Shown: one piece after another, positions 2-17,834 of the stretch
Position numbering within the stretch: position 1 is the first letter of the stretch
Layout of the letters: every line of letters begins with the position of its first letter
Source of the DNA: Calditrichales bacterium
GTDB taxonomy: Bacteria; Calditrichota; Calditrichia; Calditrichales; J004
Length of the DNA stretch: 64,000 bases
Direction: 5' to 3'
Assembly (NCBI GenBank): GCA_015493745.1
Contig: WGCN01000023.1
Span: 38,568 to 102,567, forward strand
Notes under the pieces: generated by a model
Told to the model about the DNA's origin: nothing
The model's database searches: none
The model's input: the letters and a program-made list of their open reading frames with translations, nothing else
Program-made: the position numbers and the translations under genes

Positions 2-1243
2 GTACGGGATCCCTTTCAACTGACCCAGGAACTGGTATCCAGAATTATCACCCTGGATGCCGAAATTACCGCCAGTACGGCCAAGATAAACACCCTGCAG
101 GATGTGGTTGCCGAATATAACGCCAAGTTGGAGCAGCTGCCCAACAAGGTTTTGGAAATGGCCCGTTTAAAACGGCGTCAGTTGGTGGATGAGCAAACTT
201 TTGTGATGATGACCAAAAGGCTGGAAGAAACGAAAATACAGGAAGCCGGGCAACGCAAGGAAGTGCGGGTGATCGATGAGGCCATTGAGCCGCTGTTTCC
301 CACAAAGCCCAAGAAAAAACTTAACCTGGCCCTGGGGCTGGTGCTCGGTCTGGGTCTGGGTATCGGCATTACCTTTTTGCGTGAATACTTTGACAATTCC
401 ATCAAGTCACAGGAAGAGCTGGAACAGCTTGGGTTCAATATACTGGCCACCATTCCGCGTATCGAGATGAGCAAGGTGGAAGAAAAGCTGGAGGCCCGCA
501 TGAGCAAGCTGGGGCCGATGGAAGGCAAGCGTATCGAAGCCCGTTTGATTACCCATCTCGATCCCAAGTCGCCCGTATCGGAAGCCTACCGCTCCCTGCG
601 TACCAATATCCAGTTCAGCTATGTGGATGAGAAGATCGGCGCGGTGCTGGTAACCAGTTCCGGCCCCAAGGAGGGTAAATCCACCACCTCGGCCAACCTG
701 GTTATTGCCATGGCCCAGTCGGGTAAAAAGGTGGTCTTGATCGACGCCGACCTGAGACGTCCGGTGGTGCACAGCATTTTCGGCCTGGAAAAAGATGAAG
801 GTCTGACCAACTATCTGATGGATGATATCAGCTTTGAACAGATGATTAAACCATCCATAATGGACAACCTGTATATCATCCCCAGCGGCGTTTTACCGCC
901 GAACCCTTCCGAGCTTTTAGCATCGGAGAAGATGAAGGCTTTATTGATAAAGCTGCGTGAGGAATTTGATTTTATCCTGTTTGATACCCCACCGATCATT
1001 GCCGTGACCGACGCGGCCATTTTGTCCACCATCGTCGATGGTGCCATTCTGGTTGTTTCCTCCGGTCACACAAATTATGACGCCCTTGTGCGCGCTAAAT
1101 CACTTCTGGATGCGGTGAATACCCGTATACTGGGCGCCTTGCTCAACGGAGTGGAAGTGGGCGGTATGTATGGTTCCTATTATTACTATTACTACCACCA
1201 TTACTATTCCAAACCGGGCGGGAAGAAAAAGCGCCGTTATTAA
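2..1243 (+). CDS. Polysaccharide co-polymerase / BY-family protein-tyrosine autokinase (Wzc/EpsB/CapAB-like); 5' end cut by window edge
   Basis: Frame is open from nt 2, so the Met at 104 is internal. TM helix LNLALGLVLGLGLGIGITFL; Walker A SSGPKEGKSTTSANL; Walker A' VVLIDADLRRP; Walker B FILFDTPP; C-terminal Tyr cluster YGSYYYYYYHHYY plus a basic tail. Confidence 0.85.
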   Translation, partial: VRDPFQLTQELVSRIITLDAEITASTAKINTLQDVVAEYNAKLEQLPNKVLEMARLKRRQLVDEQTFVMMTKRLEETKIQEAGQRKEVRVIDEAIEPLFPTKPKKKLNLALGLVLGLGLGIGITFLREYFDNSIKSQEELEQLGFNILATIPRIEMSKVEEKLEARMSKLGPMEGKRIEARLITHLDPKSPVSEAYRSLRTNIQFSYVDEKIGAVLVTSSGPKEGKSTTSANLVIAMAQSGKKVVLIDADLRRPVVHSIFGLEKDEGLTNYLMDDISFEQMIKPSIMDNLYIIPSGVLPPNPSELLASEKMKALLIKLREEFDFILFDTPPIIAVTDAAILSTIVDGAILVVSSGHTNYDALVRAKSLLDAVNTRILGALLNGVEVGGMYGSYYYYYYHHYYSKPGGKKKRRY

Positions 1244-1330
1244 CGGCTAATTGAAATTTTATTCTCAATTTTAATTAAATAGAACCGAGAACACATTCAT
1301 TCTAATTGATAAAGTGCAAGGAGCGCGATA

Positions 1331-2650
1331 ATGAAGATTGCGGTTGTTGGAACCGGATACGTGGGTCTGGTAGCCGGTACCTGTTTTGCGGATACCGGAA
1401 ACGAAGTCACCTGTGTGGATATTGACGAAAAGAAGGTAAATGACCTGAATAAGGGACACGTGCCCATTTATGAACCGGGCCTGGAAGAGATGATTAAGCG
1501 TAATGTGCGCGAGGAACGTTTGTTCTTCACCACGGATATTGCTAAAGCGGTAAAAGAATCGACCATCATTTTTATAGCCGTGGGCACGCCCCCGGATGAG
1601 GACGGGTCGGCCGATCTGAAATATGTACTGGCTGTGGCCCGGGACATCGGAAAGAACATGAACGGCTTTAAGGTCGTGGTGGATAAAAGCACCGTACCCG
1701 TGGGCACCGCCGATCGCGTTACCGAGGAGATTAAGAAATATACCGATCATGATTTTGCCGTGGTTTCCAATCCTGAGTTTTTAAAAGAGGGTGCGGCCAT
1801 CTCCGATTTCATGAAACCGGATCGTGTGGTCATCGGCACAAGAAATGAAGAGGCCGCGGAAATTATGCGCAACCTTTATGCGCCTTATGTACGTACCGGT
1901 AAGCCGATTATCGTTATGGATGAGCGCAGCGCCGAGCTGACCAAGTATACGGCCAACGCCCTGCTGGCCACCAAAATCTCCTTTATGAATGAGATTGCCA
2001 ATCTGTGCGATTTGACCGGCGCCGATGTGGACATGGTGCGCAAGGGCATCGGCAGCGATGTACGTATCGGACCCTATTTTATCTTTCCCGGAACCGGTTA
2101 CGGTGGCTCCTGCTTTCCCAAGGATGTGCAGGCCATCATTAAAACCGCCGATGAATATGGACTCGACCTAAAGATATTAAAAGCGGTCGAAAGTGTGAAT
2201 GCCGCCCAGAAGACGGTACTTTTCAGTAAAATTAAAAAGTACTTTAATAACGATCTGAAAGGCAAAACCGTCGCCATGTGGGGCCTGAGTTTTAAACCGA
2301 AAACCGACGACATGCGCGAGGCACCGGCAATCGAGATGGTAACCGCCCTGAATGAGGCCGGTGTAAAGGTACAGGCGCATGATCCCGAAGCCCTGGAAGA
2401 GGCCAAATGGCGTTTTGGCAAAAGGGTCAACAATGGCATTACCCTGCATGACAAACGTTATGAAGCCCTGGAGGGGGCCGATGCTCTGGTGATCATGACC
2501 GAATGGAATGAGTTCCGTGAACCGGATTTTTATCTGATTAAGGAAACTCTGTCTCATCCGGTGATATTTGACGGCCGGAATATTTATAATCCGAAAAGAA
2601 TGAAAAAATATGGCATTGACTACTTCTCGATTGGTCGGCCGCAAAATTAA
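1331..2650 (+). CDS. ugd: UDP-glucose 6-dehydrogenase
   Basis: 439 aa. Rossmann start [14 protein letters not shown]; catalytic-Cys region [11 protein letters not shown]; AAGGAG RBS upstream. Length and order of motifs are typical of Ugd. Confidence 0.9.
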
Positions 2651-5258: not shown

Positions 5259-6449
5259 TTATTCGTCCAGGGCGACGATGGGCAGGCTTTTCAGTCCCAT
5301 CTTTTGCGCCATCATGTTCAATTTTGTCTCCTCTGCCGGCAGGTCTTCGTAAACCAGAGCCAATAGGTTGCCGCCCGGGTATAGCCCGTTATTGGTCACC
5401 CGCCGTGTATCGTGATCGTGGAAGGTCCATATTCCGCGATTTTTACCTTCGATGATGATATCGATCGTTTTGCCCGGACTCAGGCGCAGGGTGTTGCGCT
5501 GCCAGGGTTGCGGCACGGGCAGGCCGTCATCGGCCACCTGCCAGAAGTCATGACCGTGCAGATGCAGGTAGTGTTCTTCCGTGCCGGCGTTAATCAGCCG
5601 CACACGGATATTCTCATCCTCGGTGATAAAGAGCGCCGGGGTGGAGGGGTAGGATTTGCCGTTTACGGTAAACCAGTTGGGAACCGGCAGGTCATCCGGG
5701 GCGCGGCGGTTAACCACATAGGGGGGCTGATAGCCGTTTTTTACCGCATCCTCAAACTCTTTTTTAGTGTCAAAGACGGCGAAACGTTCCTTGTTAAACC
5801 GGCCGGTTTTCATCATGTACATCCGTTCCTTCATGCGTTCCAGCATACTGTTCATCTCCTCGCGCAGAAAATTAACATCATGAGCGGAGTAGAGCAGCGT
5901 ATACTCCCTTTTATAGGGAAAACGGCGCGGGATGGGGTCTTCAGGGTCATCGATGATAAAGCTGCCGTACATACCCGCCTGCATGTGCAGCAGGGTACCC
6001 CAGTGGCAATGATAAAAGTGTGTGCCCTCGGGTTCGGCGGTAAACTCATAAACAAATTCCTGACCCGGCATTACCGGCATCTGAGTCACATAGGGTACGC
6101 CGTCCATGCGCCAGGGCACATGCAGGCCGTGCCAGTGGATGGTGTGGTTCAATTCCGTTTTGTTTTTAAAGATGACCCGCACCTTGTCCCCCTTGTTGAC
6201 ACGTATTTCCGGACCGGGCACCTGGTTGTTGAAGGCCAGGGTGTGTATCCTGAATCCCGGAACAATTTCCTGCTGGTGGATGTCGATAAAAAGATGGAAC
6301 TCCTTTACATCCCCGTCCATGACGGGTTCCAGCACATAAGGATATTTTTGCTTGTTGGCCGCTTTGAACGGTTTTCCAAGTAAAGTTCCCGGTAACAGGG
6401 CTCCGGCGGTTATCAGCCCCGAAGTTTGAATAAATTCTCTTCTTTTCAT
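5259..6449 (-). CDS. Tat-exported multicopper oxidase, two-cupredoxin-domain size
   Basis: 396 aa. Twin-arginine signal MKRREFIQTSGLITAGALLPG. Copper-ligand motifs HWHG, HCHWGTLLHMQAGM, HLHGH and FHDHD. CAGGAG RBS. Confidence 0.85.
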   Translation of the reverse strand: MKRREFIQTSGLITAGALLPGTLLGKPFKAANKQKYPYVLEPVMDGDVKEFHLFIDIHQQEIVPGFRIHTLAFNNQVPGPEIRVNKGDKVRVIFKNKTELNHTIHWHGLHVPWRMDGVPYVTQMPVMPGQEFVYEFTAEPEGTHFYHCHWGTLLHMQAGMYGSFIIDDPEDPIPRRFPYKREYTLLYSAHDVNFLREEMNSMLERMKERMYMMKTGRFNKERFAVFDTKKEFEDAVKNGYQPPYVVNRRAPDDLPVPNWFTVNGKSYPSTPALFITEDENIRVRLINAGTEEHYLHLHGHDFWQVADDGLPVPQPWQRNTLRLSPGKTIDIIIEGKNRGIWTFHDHDTRRVTNNGLYPGGNLLALVYEDLPAEETKLNMMAQKMGLKSLPIVALDE

Positions 6450-12414: not shown

Positions 12415-13869
12415 TTGAAAGTTGGATTTATCTCATCGGAAGTTTATCCGTTTACAAAAACCGGTGGATTGGCCGATGTAAGCGGCGCCCTTGGTAAGTA
12501 CCTGGGAGAAAACGGGGTTGACATCCGTGTAATTACACCGCTTTATGCCCAAAGCAATGTACGTTCGGCGGATTTTCATCCGGTTGATTTTCTTCAGGGA
12601 CTCTCCGTTTCCTTTAACCACCGGAAGCTTTATTACTCCGTGTACACCGCGATCCTTCCCGGATCGTCTACCCCGGTTTATTTTATTGATTGTCCGGAGT
12701 TATACCACCGGGACAGTATTTATACCAACCATGAAGATGAGTATCTCCGTTTTGCTTTTTTAAACAGAGTATCCATAGAGATTTTTCAATACATGAACTG
12801 GGCTCCGGATATCATTCATTGTAATGACTGGCAAAGCGCGCTGATCCCGCTCTATTTAAAAACCTTATATAAATGGGACAAGCTGTTTAAAAATACACGT
12901 ACGCTATTGACCCTTCACAATGTGGGCTATCACGGTAACTTCCCTTTACATGTGGTACATGAACTGGGACTGACCGATTTTATGCCCCTGCTGGATGATT
13001 TTGATACCCGGCAGGGACGCTTTAACTTTCTTAAAACCGGGGTTATTTATGCGGATATGTTAAGTACGGTCAGTAAAACCTATGCGCGGGAAATCCAGAC
13101 GCCGGAATATGGCCATGGCATGGAGGCCATGCTGGCTTACCGCAGTCAGCGGCTGGTGGGTATAGTCAATGGTGTGGATTACACGGAGTGGAATCCGGAA
13201 ACGGACAGGGAAATCTGCAAAAACTATGGCCTGAAGACACTTAATTTAAAGGCGGAGAATAAGGCCTGCCTGTTGAATGAATTGAAAATGCCGTATCATT
13301 TTCAGCAACCGCTCATAGGCATGGTAAGTCGTTTGGTAGAGCAAAAGGGCGTCGATCTGATCGCGGAAGTTATGGAGGGCTTGCTGGAGGATTTTTCTTT
13401 CCAATTGATTGTGCTGGGCAGTGGCGAAGAGCGTTATGAGCGATATTTTTATGGATTGCAGGCGCGCAACCCGGAGCGGGTATTTTTTTATAGCGGGTAT
13501 AACAACACCCTTGCTCACCGGATTGAGGCCGGCGCGGATATATTCCTGATGCCCAGCAAATATGAACCCTGTGGCCTGAACCAGATATATAGCCTTAAAT
13601 ATGGTACCATTCCGGTTGTCCGGAAGACCGGGGGGTTGGCCGACACGGTAAAGGCTTATGATTGGCAAACGCAGCAAGGTACCGGTTTTGTTTTTGAACA
13701 TTATAATGCCGCCGGTTTACGGTGGGCCCTGGAACATGCCCTTAATACCTATGCCCATCCGGAGGCCTGGATGAAAATTCGCATACAGGCCATGAAAGAG
13801 GATTTCTCCTGGGACAGGCAGGTTCGGGAATATCTTAGTCTGTATCAAAAACTGTTAAAAATGGATTGA
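12415..13869 (+). CDS. glgA: Glycogen synthase (ADP-glucose type)
   Basis: 484 aa with a TTG start. N-terminal SEVYPFTKTGGLADV; C-terminal MPSKYEPCGLNQIY and TGGLADTV. Confidence 0.9.
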   Translation: MKVGFISSEVYPFTKTGGLADVSGALGKYLGENGVDIRVITPLYAQSNVRSADFHPVDFLQGLSVSFNHRKLYYSVYTAILPGSSTPVYFIDCPELYHRDSIYTNHEDEYLRFAFLNRVSIEIFQYMNWAPDIIHCNDWQSALIPLYLKTLYKWDKLFKNTRTLLTLHNVGYHGNFPLHVVHELGLTDFMPLLDDFDTRQGRFNFLKTGVIYADMLSTVSKTYAREIQTPEYGHGMEAMLAYRSQRLVGIVNGVDYTEWNPETDREICKNYGLKTLNLKAENKACLLNELKMPYHFQQPLIGMVSRLVEQKGVDLIAEVMEGLLEDFSFQLIVLGSGEERYERYFYGLQARNPERVFFYSGYNNTLAHRIEAGADIFLMPSKYEPCGLNQIYSLKYGTIPVVRKTGGLADTVKAYDWQTQQGTGFVFEHYNAAGLRWALEHALNTYAHPEAWMKIRIQAMKEDFSWDRQVREYLSLYQKLLKMD

Positions 13870-13941
13870 AACAATATTCAGATATAATCATTAGCTATAT
13901 GATGACAAAATGATTAAATTCTACGACTCTTTAAATTGTTC

Positions 13942-14296
13942 GGGGACGATACTGGATTCGACGGGCGAGTGAAGGGTGTAAACTGCGATTCGGGATCCCG
14001 GTTATCCCGTGATTAACCGGAAAAGCACATAAGTGCCGATAATAATTACGCACTGGCAGCTTAATTGACTGTCACGTTTCTCCTTCTCCAATTCACCGGG
14101 GTTGGATGAAACGCCAAATTGGGTGGATTAAACAGGGTTCATGCCTGTGGTTCTCTGTTTAACATTTACAGGCTGGTCAGCGTGTGTGGAGGGTGGTCGC
14201 GCCTGCAGGCTGACAAGAATTAAGCGATCACTATAATCGTAGATGTTTACATTGGTCCTCGTCCGGACCCGGGTTCAACTCCCGGCGTCTCCACTA
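13942..14296 (+). ncRNA. ssrA: tmRNA (SsrA), tag reading frame 14035-14064 encoding ADNNYALAA
   Basis: 5' ggggacgatactggattcgacggg; internal gcc gat aat aat tac gca ctg gca gct taa; 3' tRNA-like end ggacccgggttcaactcccggcgtctcca. Acceptor ggggacg pairs with cgtctcc. The CCA is not fully encoded. Confidence 0.9.
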
Positions 14297-14303
14297 AATT
14301 TTT

Positions 14304-14331
14304 ACCCGGCTTGTAAAAGGCCGGGTTTTTC
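14304..14331 (+). terminator. Rho-independent terminator after ssrA
   Basis: 7-bp stem acccggc/gccgggt followed by ttttt. Confidence 0.7.
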
Positions 14332-14373
14332 GTAAGCTGCATAAACGGGAGGGAAAAGGAGAGAGCGTAAGCG

Positions 14374-14517
14374 ATGAGCGGTACTGTTTTTTTGGTAATA
14401 CTTATTGCCGTTTTTCTGTTTTTTATGTACTATTCCCATGGTGAAGCGCGAAAGAGTGCTCTGAAAAGAAAGCGCATGATCGAGCGAATAAAAAACCGCC
14501 ATTCAGATGAATTTTAA
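14374..14517 (+). CDS. Possible 47-aa single-pass membrane peptide (below the ORF-track cutoff)
   Basis: AAGGAGAG RBS about 9 nt upstream of the ATG. Sequence MSGTVFLVILIAVFLFFMYYSHGEARKSALKRKRMIERIKNRHSDEF is one hydrophobic helix plus a basic tail. Confidence 0.3.
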   Translation: MSGTVFLVILIAVFLFFMYYSHGEARKSALKRKRMIERIKNRHSDEF

Positions 14518-14582
14518 GTTGACAGAAAATAATAGAGTGCGTATATTCAAGGCTCAAAATTGATAACTGATTTATGATTTAA

Positions 14583-14656
14583 GCGAGAGTAGCTCAGCTG
14601 GCTAGAGCACAACCTTGCCAAGGTTGGGGTCGCGGGTTCGAATCCCGTCTCTCGCT
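14583..14656 (+). tRNA. tRNA-Gly (anticodon GCC)
   Basis: The cloverleaf can be drawn by hand: acceptor gcgagag/ctctcgc, D stem gctc/gagc, anticodon stem caacc/ggttg with loop ttGCCaa, T arm gcggg-ttcgaat-cccgt. 74 nt. Confidence 0.9.
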
Positions 14657-14850
14657 CTTTTTTATTTTAAGATTTTTTCTTTGAAAAAGGGTATATCTTC
14701 CTTCCCTCATACATATTTCCGGCAAAAAAAATTTATAATACGAACATACGCCTGAAGTAGATAGGGTTGAGGGAGTATGGTTTCTGGTGCTCGTCCGGAC
14801 GGTCTGGATCAAAGAAAAAATCATCGTCACGTTTCCCCGGTTTCCCTAAG

Positions 14851-15004
14851 CGGGCCAGGTGGTTAAGGGAGAGGTCTGCAACCCGCCTTTGGCGGGCGAA
14901 TCCGGTCTCGCAATAGAAAAATTAGGCGACGTACCCAAGTGGTTAAGGGAGAGGTCTGCAACCCGCCTATGGCGGGCGAATCCGGCCTCGCAATAGAAAA
15001 ATTA
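14851..15004 (+). repeat. Two tandem tRNA-Cys-derived units (14851-14923, 14924-15004) with a GC hairpin replacing the anticodon 3'/T-arm 5' region
   Basis: Unit 2 matches tRNA-Cys positions 1-37 exactly, then continues cccgcc-tat-ggcggg-cgaatccggcctcgc-aatagaaaaaatta. Unit 1 is the same from the D loop onward, with loop ttt. Confidence 0.8.
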
Positions 15005-15077
15005 GGCGACGTACCCAAGTGGTTAAGGGAGAGGTCTGCAAAACCTTTATGCGCCGGTTCGAATCCGGCCGTCGCCT
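15005..15077 (+). tRNA. tRNA-Cys (anticodon GCA)
   Basis: Acceptor ggcgacg/cgtcgcc, 3-bp D stem ccc/ggg, anticodon stem gaggt/acctt with loop ctGCAaa, T arm gccgg-ttcgaat-ccggc, discriminator U. 73 nt. Confidence 0.9.
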
Positions 15078-15080
15078 CGA

Positions 15081-15326
15081 ATGTGTTACACGGTGTATGT
15101 TCTGGTAAGCGAACGCGATCATCGTCGTTACATCGGTTGTACAAGAGATTTGTCCCGCCGTTTGGAAGAGCACAATCGTGGCTTGGTTAAGTCCACCCGT
15201 CATCGTCGTCCGCTGCGCCTGGTTTACCGGGAGGAGTTTGAGACGAAGACCGAAGCACTCGGACGGGAACGGTTTTTCAAGACGGGACAGGGCCGATGCT
15301 GGCTAAAAGAAGTGGCCGGGGTGTGA
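15081..15326 (+). CDS. Small stand-alone GIY-YIG nuclease-superfamily protein, copy 1
   Basis: 81 aa. YTVYVLVSERDHRRYIGCTRDLSRRLEEHN gives the GIY / YIG / R..EH core. The ATG lies 3 nt after the tRNA-Cys discriminator, and there is no SD. Confidence 0.8.
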   Translation: MCYTVYVLVSERDHRRYIGCTRDLSRRLEEHNRGLVKSTRHRRPLRLVYREEFETKTEALGRERFFKTGQGRCWLKEVAGV

Positions 15327-15370
15327 GAGGTCTGCAACCCGCCTGAGGCGGGTGAATCCGGCCGTCGCCT
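15325..15370 (+). repeat. Truncated tRNA-Cys-derived unit (anticodon 5' strand + GC hairpin + perfect tRNA-Cys 3' end)
   Basis: Sequence gagaggtctgcaa-cccgcc-tga-ggcggg-tgaatccggccgtcgcct begins at the stop codon of GIY-YIG copy 1 (it overlaps the last 2 nt of the tga) and ends 3 nt before copy 2. Confidence 0.75.
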
Positions 15371-15373
15371 CGA

Positions 15374-15619
15374 ATGTGTTACACGGTGTATGTTCTGGTA
15401 AGCGAACGCGATCATCGTCGTTACATCGGTTGTACAAGAGATTTGTCCCGCCGTTTGGAAGAGCACAATCGTGGCTTGGTCAAGTCCACCCGTCATCGTC
15501 GTCCGTTGCGTTTGGTCTGTTCGGAGACCTACGAAACCAGGGCCGAAACGCAAAAGCGCGAGCATTATTATAAAACAGGTCAGGGGCGTGTCTGTTTGAA
15601 AGAAGCGGCGAAGGTATAG
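15374..15619 (+). CDS. Small stand-alone GIY-YIG nuclease-superfamily protein, copy 2
   Basis: 81 aa. The first ~46 codons are nearly identical to copy 1 and the C-terminal third is diverged. The ATG lies 3 nt after the tRNA-3'-end mimic. Confidence 0.8.
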   Translation: MCYTVYVLVSERDHRRYIGCTRDLSRRLEEHNRGLVKSTRHRRPLRLVCSETYETRAETQKREHYYKTGQGRVCLKEAAKV

Positions 15620-15672
15620 ATAAATAAAATCTTGCCCGCCATTGAACAATAAAAGCTGATAAAAAATTCCGT

Positions 15673-15760
15673 GCCGGGATGGTGGAATTGGTAGACACAA
15701 GGGACTTAAAATCCCTCGGGAGGTAATCCCGTGCCGGTTCGAGTCCGGCTCCCGGTACCA
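15673..15760 (+). tRNA. tRNA-Leu (anticodon UAA), CCA encoded
   Basis: Acceptor gccggga/tcccggt; anticodon arm aggga-ctTAAaa-tccct; long variable arm; T arm gccgg-ttcgagt-ccggc; ends in acca. Confidence 0.9.
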
Positions 15761-15770
15761 GTAAGAAAAG

Positions 15771-15802
15771 GGCTTTGGAGTTTAATCCAGAGCCTTTTTT
15801 TT
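15771..15802. terminator. Rho-independent terminator (bidirectional) after tRNA-Leu, facing the convergent kinase gene
   Basis: 9-bp stem ggctttgga/tccagagcc, then tttttttt. There is a T-rich run on the opposite strand as well. Confidence 0.75.
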
Positions 15803-15860
15803 GGTCTTATCCGCAGATAAAAATATTTTAAAACAGGAAAATAGTTTTTACTGAAGGGTT

Positions 15861-17834
15861 TTACTTATCCAGTATGCAGCGCACCTTGTTGAGTAAATCC
15901 GATGGCGAAAACGGTTTTTGGATAAATTCGGTATTGGGGTTTAATATACCCTGATCATCAATGGCGTTGTCGGTATAGCCGGACATATAGAGTACTTTTA
16001 CATTCGCACGCATATTGGGCAAGTTCTCAATCAACTTCCTGCCTCCCATCTCGGGCATAACCACATCGGTTAATATCAGGTCTATTTTATCACCATGCTC
16101 CTTGAAAACTTCCGTTGCCTGCACCCCATTTAAAGCATAAAGAATATTGTAACCGTATGTCTCCAACATTTCGCATACGAGTTCCCTTACGGCTTCTTCA
16201 TCTTCAACAACCAAAATGGTTTCATGGCCATGCATATTTTTTTCCGTGTTTGGGCCGGGTGTGGAAGAGATGTTTCTATCAATGTCTTCTTCCGCGTGCA
16301 TAGGAAAATATATGTAAAAGGTTGTCCCCATTTCAAGCGTACTTTCCAGGGTAATGCCGCCATCACTCTGTTTTACTATGCCGTATACCGTGGAAAGTCC
16401 CAGACCGGTTCCCTTATCCTTGGGTTTGGTAGTAAAGAAAGGATCAAAAATTTTATTCTTTGTATCCTCATTCATTCCGGTACCTGTATCCTGAACCGAG
16501 AGGCCGACATATTGCTGATTATAATCTTTCAACTCCAGGGTAGAGCACTTTAGTTCTTCTTTTTCGGCAATGAACGTACTGATGGTTAAGTCGCCCCCCT
16601 CGGGCATGGCGTCACGGGCATTGACACACAGGTTCATTACAACCTGCCCGATTTGATGCTGATCCGCTAAAATAAATAAAGGAGCATCATGTAATTCGAT
16701 ACGCAGGTTAATATTTTCACCGATCAGACTGGAGAGCATTTTATAAAGGTCATGGATGAGGTCGTTCAGATCAAAAAGCTCGGGTTTTAGTATCTGCTTG
16801 CGGCTATACGCCAATAATTGTCCGGTGAGAGCGGAGGCCCGTTTGGCGGCCTTGTCAATCTCCTGGGCCGCCCGCACCATCGGTGTACCGGCAAGATGCG
16901 ATATCAGTCTGTCCGTATACCCGCTGATGACGATTAAAAGATTATTAAAATCATGAGCGACCCCTCCGGCTAACTGCCCGATGGCTTCCATTTTATGGGC
17001 CTGTTGGAGCTGGGCTTCCAGATTCTTGTTTTCGGTAATATCTTTGCCGACACAGATGATCAAGAAGGGCTGATCCTTGTCATCCTTGATGTTGGATGTT
17101 GATACATAGTATGGAAAAGGACTACCATCCCGTTTTGTACAGCTTATTTCACCTTGCCAGTTATGATTTATACTCTCCGGAATAATCACCTCTTTAAATA
17201 CATTCGGATTGTCCTCATGGCAAAGATCATTGATGTTAGAACTGTTAAGGCTGTTAAGGGGATAGTTGAAAATATTATAAAACGCTTCATTGGCAAAGAT
17301 AATTTTTCCGTCCAGATCAATGATTGAAAGTCCTTCTCCAATGCTCATCATGGCATGGGCCAGCAGGCTCATTTCTATTTCATTGCGTTTTTCCGCGGTG
17401 ATGTCTTGCATACGAACAATAAAAAAGGTTTCCTCATCAATACGCGTGGCCGTGATATGAATTTCAAGCAAAACCCGTTTCTGACGATTGTCGGACAGGC
17501 TTAACTGCAAAGACTGTGTCGATTTATTTTCGGTAAGGCTGGTGAGCTGAAGCTGGTTCATGACACCAAGTACTTCACTCCGGTTGGGCTCCTCAAACAG
17601 GGTTTCAATGGTATCACCGGGTTGCGGAGGTTTGGCAAACATGTCGTGCGTTAAAGTATTACACAATAGCAGAACTCCCTGGTAATCCAGTAACATCATC
17701 CCGTCCGGAGACTGGTTGAACACAGCTTCGAGTAATTGATTTATTTTTTGAGAAAGCTTTTTTACTTGGGAGGATAAATAGCTGTCTTCTTCGATCATGT
17801 CTGCATTCGAGTTTTTCATAACATCCTTATTCAA
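15861..17834 (-). CDS. Hybrid sensor histidine kinase (PAS x2-3, HisKA, HATPase, C-terminal receiver)
   Basis: 657 aa. H-box GGVAHDFNNLL; N-box NLCVNARDAMPEGG; G1 VQDTGTGM; G2 GTGLGLSTVYG. Receiver: ILVVEDEEAV ... DLILTDVVMPEMGG ... QKPF. Confidence 0.85.
   Translation of the reverse strand: MNKDVMKNSNADMIEEDSYLSSQVKKLSQKINQLLEAVFNQSPDGMMLLDYQGVLLLCNTLTHDMFAKPPQPGDTIETLFEEPNRSEVLGVMNQLQLTSLTENKSTQSLQLSLSDNRQKRVLLEIHITATRIDEETFFIVRMQDITAEKRNEIEMSLLAHAMMSIGEGLSIIDLDGKIIFANEAFYNIFNYPLNSLNSSNINDLCHEDNPNVFKEVIIPESINHNWQGEISCTKRDGSPFPYYVSTSNIKDDKDQPFLIICVGKDITENKNLEAQLQQAHKMEAIGQLAGGVAHDFNNLLIVISGYTDRLISHLAGTPMVRAAQEIDKAAKRASALTGQLLAYSRKQILKPELFDLNDLIHDLYKMLSSLIGENINLRIELHDAPLFILADQHQIGQVVMNLCVNARDAMPEGGDLTISTFIAEKEELKCSTLELKDYNQQYVGLSVQDTGTGMNEDTKNKIFDPFFTTKPKDKGTGLGLSTVYGIVKQSDGGITLESTLEMGTTFYIYFPMHAEEDIDRNISSTPGPNTEKNMHGHETILVVEDEEAVRELVCEMLETYGYNILYALNGVQATEVFKEHGDKIDLILTDVVMPEMGGRKLIENLPNMRANVKVLYMSGYTDNAIDDQGILNPNTEFIQKPFSPSDLLNKVRCILDK

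Follow-up and report, generated by a model that had tools for sequence, protein, structure and literature searches.

The locus between tRNA-Gly and tRNA-Leu

We analysed a 64,000-nucleotide (nt) stretch of the genome of a Calditrichales bacterium (contig WGCN01000023.1, assembly GCA_015493745.1; hereafter the window), in which two tandem genes for small stand-alone GIY-YIG nucleases, GIY-1 and GIY-2, lie in a cluster of tRNA genes beside an intact tRNA-Cys gene and three disabled copies of it (Table 1). The inserted material in the window amounts to about 0.75 kb and, judged together with related loci from other genomes, is probably one instance of a widespread selfish cassette that nests in tRNA genes.

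A previous reading of this DNA from its letters, hereafter the sequence-only reading, had pointed out that both 81-amino-acid (aa) open reading frames (ORFs) open 3 nt ('cga') after a tRNA-like end, that of tRNA-Cys for GIY-1 and that of the preceding tRNA-Cys remnant for GIY-2, and that neither has a Shine-Dalgarno (SD) sequence. Coordinates and sequences were confirmed on both counts, the 15 nt before the ATG (CGGCCGTCGCCTCGA) containing no GGAG, GAGG or AGGA. ARAGORN ends tRNA-Cys one nucleotide later than Rfam (15005-15078 versus 15005-15077). GIY-1 and GIY-2 are successive units of a 293-nt tandem repeat (15061-15316 versus 15354-15609, 83% identity); the two short-leader cases are therefore not independent, and their significance rests on the comparative data.

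We additionally identified two upstream pseudo-copies of tRNA-Cys, units A and B (14845-15004), and three hairpins, all features beyond those of the sequence-only reading. In units A and B and in the remnant before GIY-2, a 15-nt hairpin with a 6-bp stem and a triloop, CCCGCC-NNN-GGCGGG, takes the place of tRNA nt 38-56. Unit B retains nt 1-37 intact, followed by the hairpin, nt 57-66, TCGC and a 13-nt spacer (AATAGAAAAATTA); unit A has a degenerate 5' end, with homology from position 14855, and carries nt ~11-37, the hairpin, nt 57-66, TCGC and the same spacer. The 46-nt remnant reads GAGAGGTCTGCAA-CCCGCCTGAGGCGGG-T-GAATCCGGCCGTCGCCT, which corresponds to nt 25-37, the hairpin, a T and nt 57-73, and overlaps the GIY-1 stop codon by 2 nt. 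The 5' half of tRNA-Cys is present three times in the window.

Neither the remnant nor units A and B were called as tRNA by ARAGORN or by the Rfam tRNA model (E<=1), and across 13500-16500 Rfam at this threshold returned the transfer-messenger RNA (tmRNA) and the three tRNAs, with no family over the pseudo-copies, the remnant or the hairpin. Of both the acceptor stem and the T-stem the remnant is missing the 5' strand, and the 6-bp hairpin is its only fold (z = -0.66), so that it should, on paper, be a poor substrate for RNase P or RNase Z. We found the full hairpin nowhere in the 64-kb window other than at the three sites of this locus. The shorter pattern CGCC-N-GGCG occurs 11 times in the window against 4.7 expected, a count that includes the three locus hairpins, the others being bare 10-13-mers at about chance level.

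Two further candidates were rejected. A longer stem, GAGGTC/GGCCTC, predicted around the hairpin in units A and B scores no better than shuffled controls (z = -0.18) and is missing from the remnant, and we make no claim of a structured RNA. A 22-nt stretch of tRNA-Gly (D-stem to anticodon arm, 14604-14625; repeat family D5) resembles the EEHNRGL-coding region of both GIY genes (15167-15188 and 15460-15481) at 73-77% identity, a likeness that is probably due to chance. Elsewhere in the family (e.g. loci L016 and L023), C-terminal codons of GIY genes truly derive from 5' tRNA fragments.

Table 1. Coordinates of the features at the tRNA-Cys locus (window numbering).
Feature	Position	Strand	Basis
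Candidate promoter TTGACA-17-TATATT	14519..14547	+	Consensus match 11/12, ahead of tRNA-Gly
tRNA-Gly(GCC), conserved upstream neighbour	14583..14657	+	ARAGORN, Rfam; same Gly-Cys-Leu order in L087-L089
Unit A, 80-nt tRNA-Cys pseudo-copy	14845..14924	+	Direct repeat families D2-D4, sequence reading
Hairpin CCCGCC-TTT-GGCGGG, unit A	14882..14896	.	Sequence; motif tested family-wide
Unit B, 80-nt tRNA-Cys pseudo-copy	14925..15004	+	Repeat families and sequence reading
Hairpin CCCGCC-TAT-GGCGGG, unit B	14962..14976	.	Sequence; motif tested family-wide
Intact tRNA-Cys(GCA), discriminator U73 at 15077, no encoded CCA	15005..15077	+	Rfam 67 bits, ARAGORN, cloverleaf fold z = -2.3
'cga' spacer, tRNA-Cys discriminator to GIY-1 ATG	15078..15080	+	Sequence
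GIY-1, 81 aa, stand-alone GIY-YIG nuclease, assigned to Slx1-like/UPF0213 branch	15081..15326	+	PF01541, structure searches
tRNA-Cys remnant ('mimic' of the sequence-only reading)	15325..15370	+	Sequence, repeat family D3
Hairpin CCCGCC-TGA-GGCGGG, remnant	15338..15352	.	Sequence; motif test; folding
Second 'cga' spacer, inside 293-nt repeat unit	15371..15373	+	Sequence
GIY-2, 81-aa paralogue of GIY-1	15374..15619	+	ORF list, PF01541
tRNA-Leu(UAA), conserved downstream neighbour	15673..15760	+	ARAGORN, Rfam
Probable intrinsic terminator, GGCTTTGGA...TCCAGAGCC then T8, closing the unit	15771..15803	+	Sequence reading; kept in L128

A family of small nucleases beside tRNA genes

Both ORFs match PF01541, the GIY-YIG profile against which the sequence-only reading had suggested checking them (52.2 bits, 7e-14, for GIY-1; 51.0 bits, 2e-13, for GIY-2; curated cut-off 22.6 bits), and both retain the GIY / YIG / R..EH core that it had recognised, with all catalytic residues present. 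Y17, G19, R27 and E63 do not vary across an alignment of 48 sequences, in which conservation reaches at least 90% at Y6 and H31. The AlphaFold2 model (pLDDT, predicted local distance difference test, 96.3) has strands at residues 3-10, 16-21 and 45-53 and helices at 24-32, 56-66 and 69-79, in the beta-beta-alpha-beta-alpha topology of GIY-YIG domains. Sequence searches matched 1zg2 (9.6e-15), 1ywl (3.3e-14), SLX1 (7e-6) and I-TevI (4e-3), and Foldseek gave E<=1e-3 for 1zg2 and Slx1, 0.25 for I-TevI and 1.7 for UvrC. From these sequence and modelled-structure matches we assign the protein to the Slx1-like/UPF0213 stand-alone branch rather than to the UvrC or I-TevI branch. The earlier remark that it has no DNA-binding extension also stands: at 81 aa it comprises a catalytic domain only, in keeping with Slx1-like/UPF0213 proteins and not with classical homing enzymes. 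Among NCBIfam models we found only a sub-threshold match to a group I intron endonuclease (19 versus 56 bits). The sole asparagine of the 81-aa protein is N32 of the EHN motif, the C-terminal helix (KTGQGRCWLKEVAGV) contains none, and there is no auxiliary domain, as described for this group (PMC1564403).

GIY-1 and GIY-2 encode identical protein over codons 1-46, with a proportion of synonymous differences (pS) of 0.09, and are synonymously saturated over codons 47-81 (pS 0.88), which marks the pair as a mosaic produced by recombination or gene conversion; the strongly diverged C-terminal halves are of an 'a' type in GIY-1 (...AGV) and a 'b' type in GIY-2 (...AKV). Ratios of non-synonymous to synonymous substitution (dN/dS) of 0.1-0.23 against relatives indicate that the protein is maintained by purifying selection. 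In L001, a close relative, the third GIY copy lacks one of the conserved motifs and seems to have decayed.

An exhaustive protein search returned 7312 cluster representatives at E<=1e-3, where a word-indexed search gave just 6. With alignment A3 (A1 and A2 being too diverse) we retrieved 80 genome loci from more than 15 phyla, containing 87 GIY genes; the lineages sampled include Calditrichota, Ignavibacteria, Elusimicrobia, many members of the Candidate Phyla Radiation (CPR)/Patescibacteria, Acidobacteriota, Bacteroidota, Chloroflexota, Planctomycetota, Verrucomicrobiota, Spirochaetes and others. Many database entries are over-long (P0007, 214 aa; P0020, 205 aa; P0014, 655 aa; many with N-terminal extensions of 20-60 aa), and some hold two GIY stretches; gene callers have probably read through a tRNA or remnant or fused tandem copies, so that annotation in this family is probably often wrong.

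In the neighbourhood survey, which the sequence-only reading had proposed, most genes of this set adjoin a tRNA gene. A same-strand tRNA lies within 100 nt of 67 of the 87 genes (upstream in 26, downstream in 39, on both sides in 2), against a roughly estimated expectation of less than 1% for a random gene, and an opposite-strand tRNA within 100 nt was found for none of the 87. The partners are tRNAs for Arg, Asn, Gln, Cys, Pro, Ser, Tyr, Trp, Ala, Ile, Met, Leu, Val and Gly. With an upstream tRNA, 1-99 nt separate its end from the start codon (14 nt or less in 15 of 28 cases); the first nucleotide of a downstream tRNA lies between 23 nt within the ORF and a few tens of nucleotides beyond it. 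A 10-nt overlap recurs (L004, L011, L027, L038, L042, L077), with the ORF stop placed inside the tRNA at U8-A9-G10. In the larger class of 39 genes the ATG follows a 5' tRNA fragment and hairpins, and the gene runs into the downstream tRNA; a start that abuts a processable tRNA 3' end is not a consistent property of the family.

One homologue illustrates the variety of these arrangements. In L004, from an unrelated metagenome, the gene for a 55%-identical product lies on tRNA-Gly, with a 5' tRNA-Gly fragment and a perfect palindrome upstream of the gene, whose stop codon is formed by U8-A9-G10 of the intact tRNA-Gly; three 37-nt units follow this tRNA, the T-arm of each replaced by a GC hairpin.

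Clustered by the unweighted pair group method with arithmetic mean (UPGMA), the GIY proteins group largely by partner tRNA across phyla. A Cys clade joins the window and other Calditrichota with Ignavibacteria and Elusimicrobia, a Gln clade joins CPR bacteria with metagenome-assembled genomes (MAGs) labelled Gammaproteobacteria, and an Arg clade joins Acidobacteriota and Dormiibacterota; there are also Asn, Pro and Tyr clades. A single match was found in 2.9 million viral contigs (L141), and phage carriage is therefore not the rule. That contig (IMGVR_UViG_3300026551_000083, 1440-1820) has a 3' tRNA-Arg fragment upstream of the GIY gene and, downstream, a D-arm fragment, a 3' fragment and, between them, the hairpin TCCGCC-TCA-GGCGGA. 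No call of an intact tRNA was made there, and the contig may represent a prophage border or a mis-binned chromosomal piece.

Fragments of the partner tRNA are not confined to the window. On the far side of the gene, away from the intact tRNA, we identified fragments of the same tRNA in 55 of 69 tRNA-GIY pairs, against 8 of 69 when an unrelated tRNA served as control, and most of the listed fragments are 100% identical to their tRNA. The blocks that part these fragments are nearly always a 15-nt hairpin, often two side by side, in variants such as TCCGCC-NNN-GGCGGA, CCCGCC-NNN-GGCGGG, TGCGCC-NNN-GGCGCA, CTCGCC-NNN-GGCGAG and GTCGCC-NNN-GGCGAC. Taking every GCC-N3-GGC site within about 150 nt of GIY ORF ends, and so without selecting for pairing, we found the outer triplets fully complementary at 98 of 113 sites (1.6% expected by chance), with 12 different outer triplets, which constitutes covariation. 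Such sites occur at 3.95 per kb near the genes and at 0.54 per kb elsewhere in the loci, and 53 of 81 loci hold at least one such hairpin. Breakpoints beside the hairpins cluster at tRNA nt 25-38, in the anticodon arm; in the Cys clade, the window included, the break falls after A37.

Loop sequences are about as frequent as their reverse complements (TCC 11, GGA 9; AAA 10, TTT 9), a pattern that fits an orientation-free palindrome acting at the DNA level rather than a strand-specific RNA signal. We found no consistent flip of the hairpin between paired copies and make no flip/flop claim. The simple motif counted here understates the diversity of these hairpins, longer variants being present in L013 (1391-1475, 1860-1917), L007, L021, L073, L077 and L083; these include CCCGCCAA-N6-TTGGCGGG, CCTGCCTG-ACGG-CAGGCAGG and CCCGCCA-GAGTCTGG-TGGCGGG, sometimes with three per tRNA pseudo-copy.

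These data bear on how the nuclease genes might be expressed. Co-transcription with the tRNA is plausible from the arrangement, since all 67 nearby tRNAs are co-oriented with their GIY genes and, in the window, a promoter-like site precedes tRNA-Gly while no other plus-strand promoter-like site, and no terminator-like site, was called from there to tRNA-Leu. (The terminator scan also missed the stem that follows tRNA-Leu, which contains one mismatch.) The GIY genes would then have no promoter of their own and be expressed by read-through from the tRNA operon, for which the site before tRNA-Gly is a candidate; this would explain why they always lie within a few nucleotides of a tRNA or overlap it, often without an SD.

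A stronger proposal, raised in the sequence-only reading, is that tRNA 3' processing by RNase Z or P sets the 5' end of the mRNA, leaving a leaderless message or a 3-nt leader, and that the remnant before GIY-2 was kept because processing needs it. Consistent with this, every GIY copy in the window, in L128 and in L001 lies 3 nt after ...GGCCGTCGCCT, upstream gaps are 14 nt or less in 15 of 28 cases, with no SD in the examples read, and co-orientation is universal; as about half of the genome's long ORFs have an SD core, its lack here is somewhat notable. However, the 39 genes with downstream tRNAs start after a 5' tRNA fragment and hairpins and not after a tRNA 3' end, and upstream gaps range up to 99 nt. 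The remnant, moreover, is not recognised as tRNA-like and lacks strands that an acceptor stem or a T-arm would need; it is fully accounted for by the 293-nt repeat unit, and pseudo-copies with the same hairpin at 14845-15004 are followed by no ORF. We thus regard this explanation as unlikely, and a processing signal is not required to account for the remnant. Near-leaderless messages, like co-transcription, are plausible. Spacing across the family, however, runs from an overlap of 23 nt to a gap of 99 nt, so that a 3-nt leader does not characterise the family as a whole, and under the cassette reading it would be a local by-product of tight packing in a tRNA operon; weak initiation may be acceptable, perhaps even advantageous, in a nuclease gene.

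Occupied sites, empty sites and the cassette reading

We investigated the same chromosomal site in related genomes. Glycogen synthase homologues place the window in Calditrichota. In syntenic Calditrichota the gene order is glgA, tmRNA, a small ORF, tRNA-Gly, tRNA-Cys, tRNA-Leu and a histidine kinase. Three of these genomes have empty sites (L087, whose glgA is 71% identical, L088 and L089): tRNA-Cys and tRNA-Leu are 13-17 nt apart, with neither GIY gene nor pseudo-copies. The native spacer of L087 is the 13-nt cgatcatttgtgt and opens with 'cga', indicating that the 'cga' of the window is the start of the native spacer. Relative to these genomes, the cassette is an insertion.

The same site is occupied in the window, L001, L002, L086, L128 and L006, with differing contents. 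L086, a closer relative (glgA 84%), has an upstream array of pseudo-copies, in which the contig ends; L128, a near-identical strain, carries three units upstream but a single GIY gene, the counterpart of GIY-2, 3 nt after tRNA-Cys; and L001, a close relative (GCA_027006225.1), has at least three tandem units of remnant, hairpin, 3 nt and GIY gene before the same tRNA-Leu. Cassette copy number thus varies between near-identical strains. We additionally note that in L001 a tyrosine integrase (1041-2042, minus strand) follows tRNA-Leu, in place of the PAS histidine kinase of the window, and probably belongs to a separate island integrated at tRNA-Leu.

A scan of metagenomes for the junction GGTCTGCAA|CCCGCC-N3-GGCGGG identified 51 loci; in 37 of them the mapped stretch includes a flanking tRNA, and these 37 are all tRNA-Gly/Cys/Leu or tRNA-Gly/Cys/Val clusters. 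Together the 51 span every arrangement of the modules: GIY after or before tRNA-Cys, two GIY copies, and footprints with no GIY gene. In L138 (Ga0209777_10000002, a 654-kb contig), L106 and L114, a tRNA-Cys fragment and the signature hairpin lie beside an intact tRNA-Cys; GIY is absent, and these loci resemble footprints that remained once the nuclease gene was lost. L123 (VAPC010275371.1, 341-775) resembles L108 (VAPA010916963.1) minus the span between the two repeats of 'cys20-37 + hairpin' and appears to have neither tRNA-Cys nor GIY; recombination between the repeats may truly have deleted the span, or the assembly may have collapsed there, and the locus is not used here as evidence.

The sequence-only reading had named, as its alternative, a homing-type cassette that carries target-site copies at tRNA-Cys. 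This is the explanation that the empty sites and the excess of far-side fragments support, together with the clades that follow tRNA identity and the strain-level variation in copy number. As we picture it, the cassette has three modules: a gene for a stand-alone GIY-YIG nuclease of about 80 aa from the Slx1-like/UPF0213 branch; an intact tRNA gene that abuts one end of this gene, always on the same strand; and, on the other side, disabled copies or fragments of the same tRNA in which a stretch is swapped for a hairpin of the form NNNGCC-NNN-GGCNNN. The nuclease would break or nick tRNA gene DNA. With the flanking tRNA copies serving as homology arms, repair or recombination would then copy the cassette in, regenerating one intact tRNA and leaving the other copy disabled. 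The target would be a universally conserved tRNA gene, with the arms providing fidelity to it; this would account for a domain without a DNA-binding module staying tied to one tRNA. In the window, the cassette would have inserted between tRNA-Cys and tRNA-Leu and then been amplified and reshuffled by recombination between repeats, giving the order of two pseudo-copies, tRNA-Cys, GIY-1, remnant and GIY-2; tandem arrays in general may arise from repeated cutting or from unequal crossing-over between repeats. The hairpin, rather than mimicking a tRNA for processing, may be a DNA-level part of the element: its end, a recognition structure, or a homology breaker that guards against loss by direct-repeat recombination. 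Our confidence in each of these steps is lower than in the cassette as a whole.

Several points weigh against this reading. Mobility is deduced from distribution, and as many loci within one clade (e.g. those at tRNA-Arg in Acidobacteriota) are possibly vertical descendants, the counts are not counts of independent events. For twenty of the 87 genes, a few of which lie at contig ends, the nearest 100 nt hold no tRNA, and most loci come from MAGs, in which repeats break and may mis-join assemblies. An 81-aa catalytic domain without a DNA-binding module differs from proven homing enzymes. The regenerated intact tRNA should itself stay a target, so that cutting would have to be rare or dependent on structure, unless the model is incomplete. 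Finally, the upstream flank of the tRNA is also duplicated at some loci (L070, L026 and, in the window, AATAGAAAAATTA), which fits local tandem duplication as well as import.

We also considered that the nuclease might be a host housekeeping factor for tRNA loci, active in the resolution of R-loops or secondary structure or in tRNA gene conversion, with the fragments as a side effect. Its broad phylogenetic spread, purifying selection and conserved catalytic residues would suit such a role, as would the constant co-orientation with tRNAs and the structure-specific Slx1 nucleases that are its closest structural relatives. However, the gene is patchy among close, syntenic relatives, differs in copy number between near-identical strains, and has left a decayed third copy in L001 and GIY-less footprints in L138, L106 and L114. 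Each sampled locus, moreover, ties the gene to one or a few tRNA genes and not to tRNA loci generally, and the clades follow tRNA identity across phyla in a manner that resembles horizontal spread. A housekeeping role is accordingly, in our judgement, distinctly unlikely.

A more far-reaching version of the cassette reading, which we hold to be possible but doubtful, is that the nuclease and the GCC-NNN-GGC hairpin form a new class of minimal DNA element that recognises structure and not sequence. Heavily transcribed tRNA genes would expose cloverleaf-like or cruciform DNA, which the nuclease would cut where an arm or the acceptor stem begins, at its base, so that all or part of the tRNA gene is duplicated and a tRNA arm is swapped for the element's own hairpin. 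The flanking tRNA copies would act as universal homology arms, allowing entry into the same tRNA gene across unrelated phyla without a recombinase, and the hairpin rather than the ORF would be the basic mobile or recognition unit.

If confirmed, the cassette would rank as a very small selfish element, about 0.3 kb long and made of one 80-aa nuclease and a 15-nt hairpin, whose landing sites are the most conserved genes in biology and whose hosts include CPR/Patescibacteria, Acidobacteriota, Bacteroidota, Chloroflexota, Calditrichota and other phyla. We found no defined role for stand-alone bacterial Slx1-like/UPF0213 proteins in the searchable literature; the cassette would supply this large family with a concrete role in the genome and with substrates open to testing, namely the hairpin and the DNA of tRNA genes. 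It would account for recurring tRNA pseudo-fragments, for MAG contigs broken at tRNA clusters and for mis-called ORFs with N-terminal extensions, and would offer a natural system for the expression of a protein gene inside a tRNA operon with very short leaders lacking an SD. So compact a nuclease, paired with a defined hairpin, might in addition be of interest for tool development.

The surroundings of the locus contain further features. A tmRNA with the tag ADNNYALAA (13942-14294), followed by a clean intrinsic terminator (14304-14326), is shared, tag included, with L086-L089. Between the tmRNA and tRNA-Gly lies a 47-aa ORF (14374-14517, plus strand; MSGTVFLVILIAVFLFFMYYSHGEARKSALKRKRMIERIKNRHSDEF) with one hydrophobic helix and a basic tail, which is probably a real small membrane protein, because its position and sequence are conserved in related Calditrichota loci (L086, 5980-6123; L087, ~5938-6078). 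A perfect 14-nt inverted repeat (GATTTTTTCTTTGA / TCAAAGAAAAAATC; 14671-14684 and 14809-14822) brackets 124 nt between tRNA-Gly and the first tRNA-Cys pseudo-copy, and its right arm is also present in L128.

Comparison with known systems

Among the closest precedents is SegB of phage T4, a free-standing GIY-YIG homing endonuclease whose gene lies within the T4 tRNA gene cluster (PMC2330249). Both systems place a GIY-YIG gene between tRNA genes, with no intron or intein, both vary in presence among relatives, and the inheritance of both is thought to be driven by DNA breaks and co-conversion of flanks, which for the cassette is our interpretation. As with free-standing homing genes, the cassette occupies its conserved site in some related genomes and not in others; a dedicated DNA-binding domain for long, sequence-specific recognition, which such enzymes also have, is lacking, and target choice may come from flanking tRNA homology or from DNA structure. 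Seg enzymes exceed 200 aa and have DNA-binding domains, in contrast to the bare 81-aa catalytic domain of the Slx1-like branch found here. Nor do SegB loci have the duplicated, hairpin-interrupted tRNA copies of the cassette, whose family resides in bacterial chromosomes and hardly ever turns up on viral contigs.

We know of no relative in the Protein Data Bank with a known substrate except eukaryotic Slx1, a structure-specific nuclease that cuts branched DNA. The best match in sequence and fold is to the stand-alone UPF0213/Slx1-like proteins BH0048 (1zg2) and EF2693 (1ywl), at E-values of 1e-14. The cassette proteins resemble the 'Slx1 non-Eukaryota' cluster of Dunin-Horkawicz et al. (2006; PMC1564403) in their minimal domain, their lack of an auxiliary domain and the absence of a C-terminal asparagine. 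That study treated the cluster as probable repair enzymes, with links to a methyltransferase and a TrmH fusion, and makes no mention of tRNA-gene adjacency, tRNA fragments or hairpins.

Islands and prophages driven by integrases also use tRNA genes (Williams 2002; Reiter 1989; reviewed in PMC9897764). The cassette resembles them in inserting into a tRNA gene, often at an anticodon-loop sublocation, and in carrying a replacement part that leaves one intact and one partial copy as flanks. It differs in size, with an insert of 0.3-0.8 kb against 5-100 kb, in having no tyrosine or serine recombinase, in displacing either the 5' or the 3' part, and in fragments that are interrupted by hairpins and often form tandem arrays. 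The tRNA pieces could nevertheless be read as attL/attR scars of such elements, with the GIY genes as unrelated passengers: tRNA fragments are common at island ends (PMC9897764), L001 has its integrase downstream of tRNA-Leu, and the viral contig L141 has a 3' tRNA-Arg fragment upstream of its GIY gene. Against this, the insert in the window contains no recombinase, the GIY genes being the only ORFs with family support between 14845 and 15672. Both 5' and 3' tRNA parts are duplicated and hairpin-interrupted, unlike integrase attachment sites; fragments lie within a few nucleotides of a GIY ORF in dozens of loci with no integrase in their 1.5-kb flanks, as is the case for most loci of the family; and there is just the one match among viral contigs. 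We consider this origin of the tRNA pieces highly improbable.

Two further systems share parts of the arrangement ascribed to the cassette. Short GC-rich imperfect palindromes accompany one small nuclease gene in repetitive extragenic palindromic (REP)/RAYT systems and in IS200/IS605 as well, and in them, as here, covariation in the stem indicates that a folded DNA form matters. They differ in their enzyme, which is of the HUH/Y1 type and not GIY-YIG, and REPs are dispersed genome-wide, whereas the hairpins described here occur in tRNA pseudo-copies by the gene, with none elsewhere in the 64-kb window. In fungal mitochondria, mobile endonuclease ORFs reportedly replace the terminus of a gene and leave the displaced end as a pseudogene, and GC-cluster or double-hairpin elements are said to bring GC-rich palindromic hairpins together with mobile ORFs (both attributed to Paquin, Laforest and Lang). 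A nuclease ORF would in both cases travel with a replacement piece of its target gene; host organelle, protein-coding target and enzyme size reportedly differ, and the likeness is one of resemblance, with no kinship of the hairpins shown.

We found no published description of this arrangement, the literature returning phage Seg and mitochondrial intron papers, with most subscription journals outside the search. The cassette is thus apparently undescribed, although its kind, a nuclease-driven selfish cassette at tRNA genes, is known. None of the compared systems joins a bare 80-aa Slx1-like nuclease to duplicated tRNA copies and a conserved triloop hairpin that replaces a tRNA arm.

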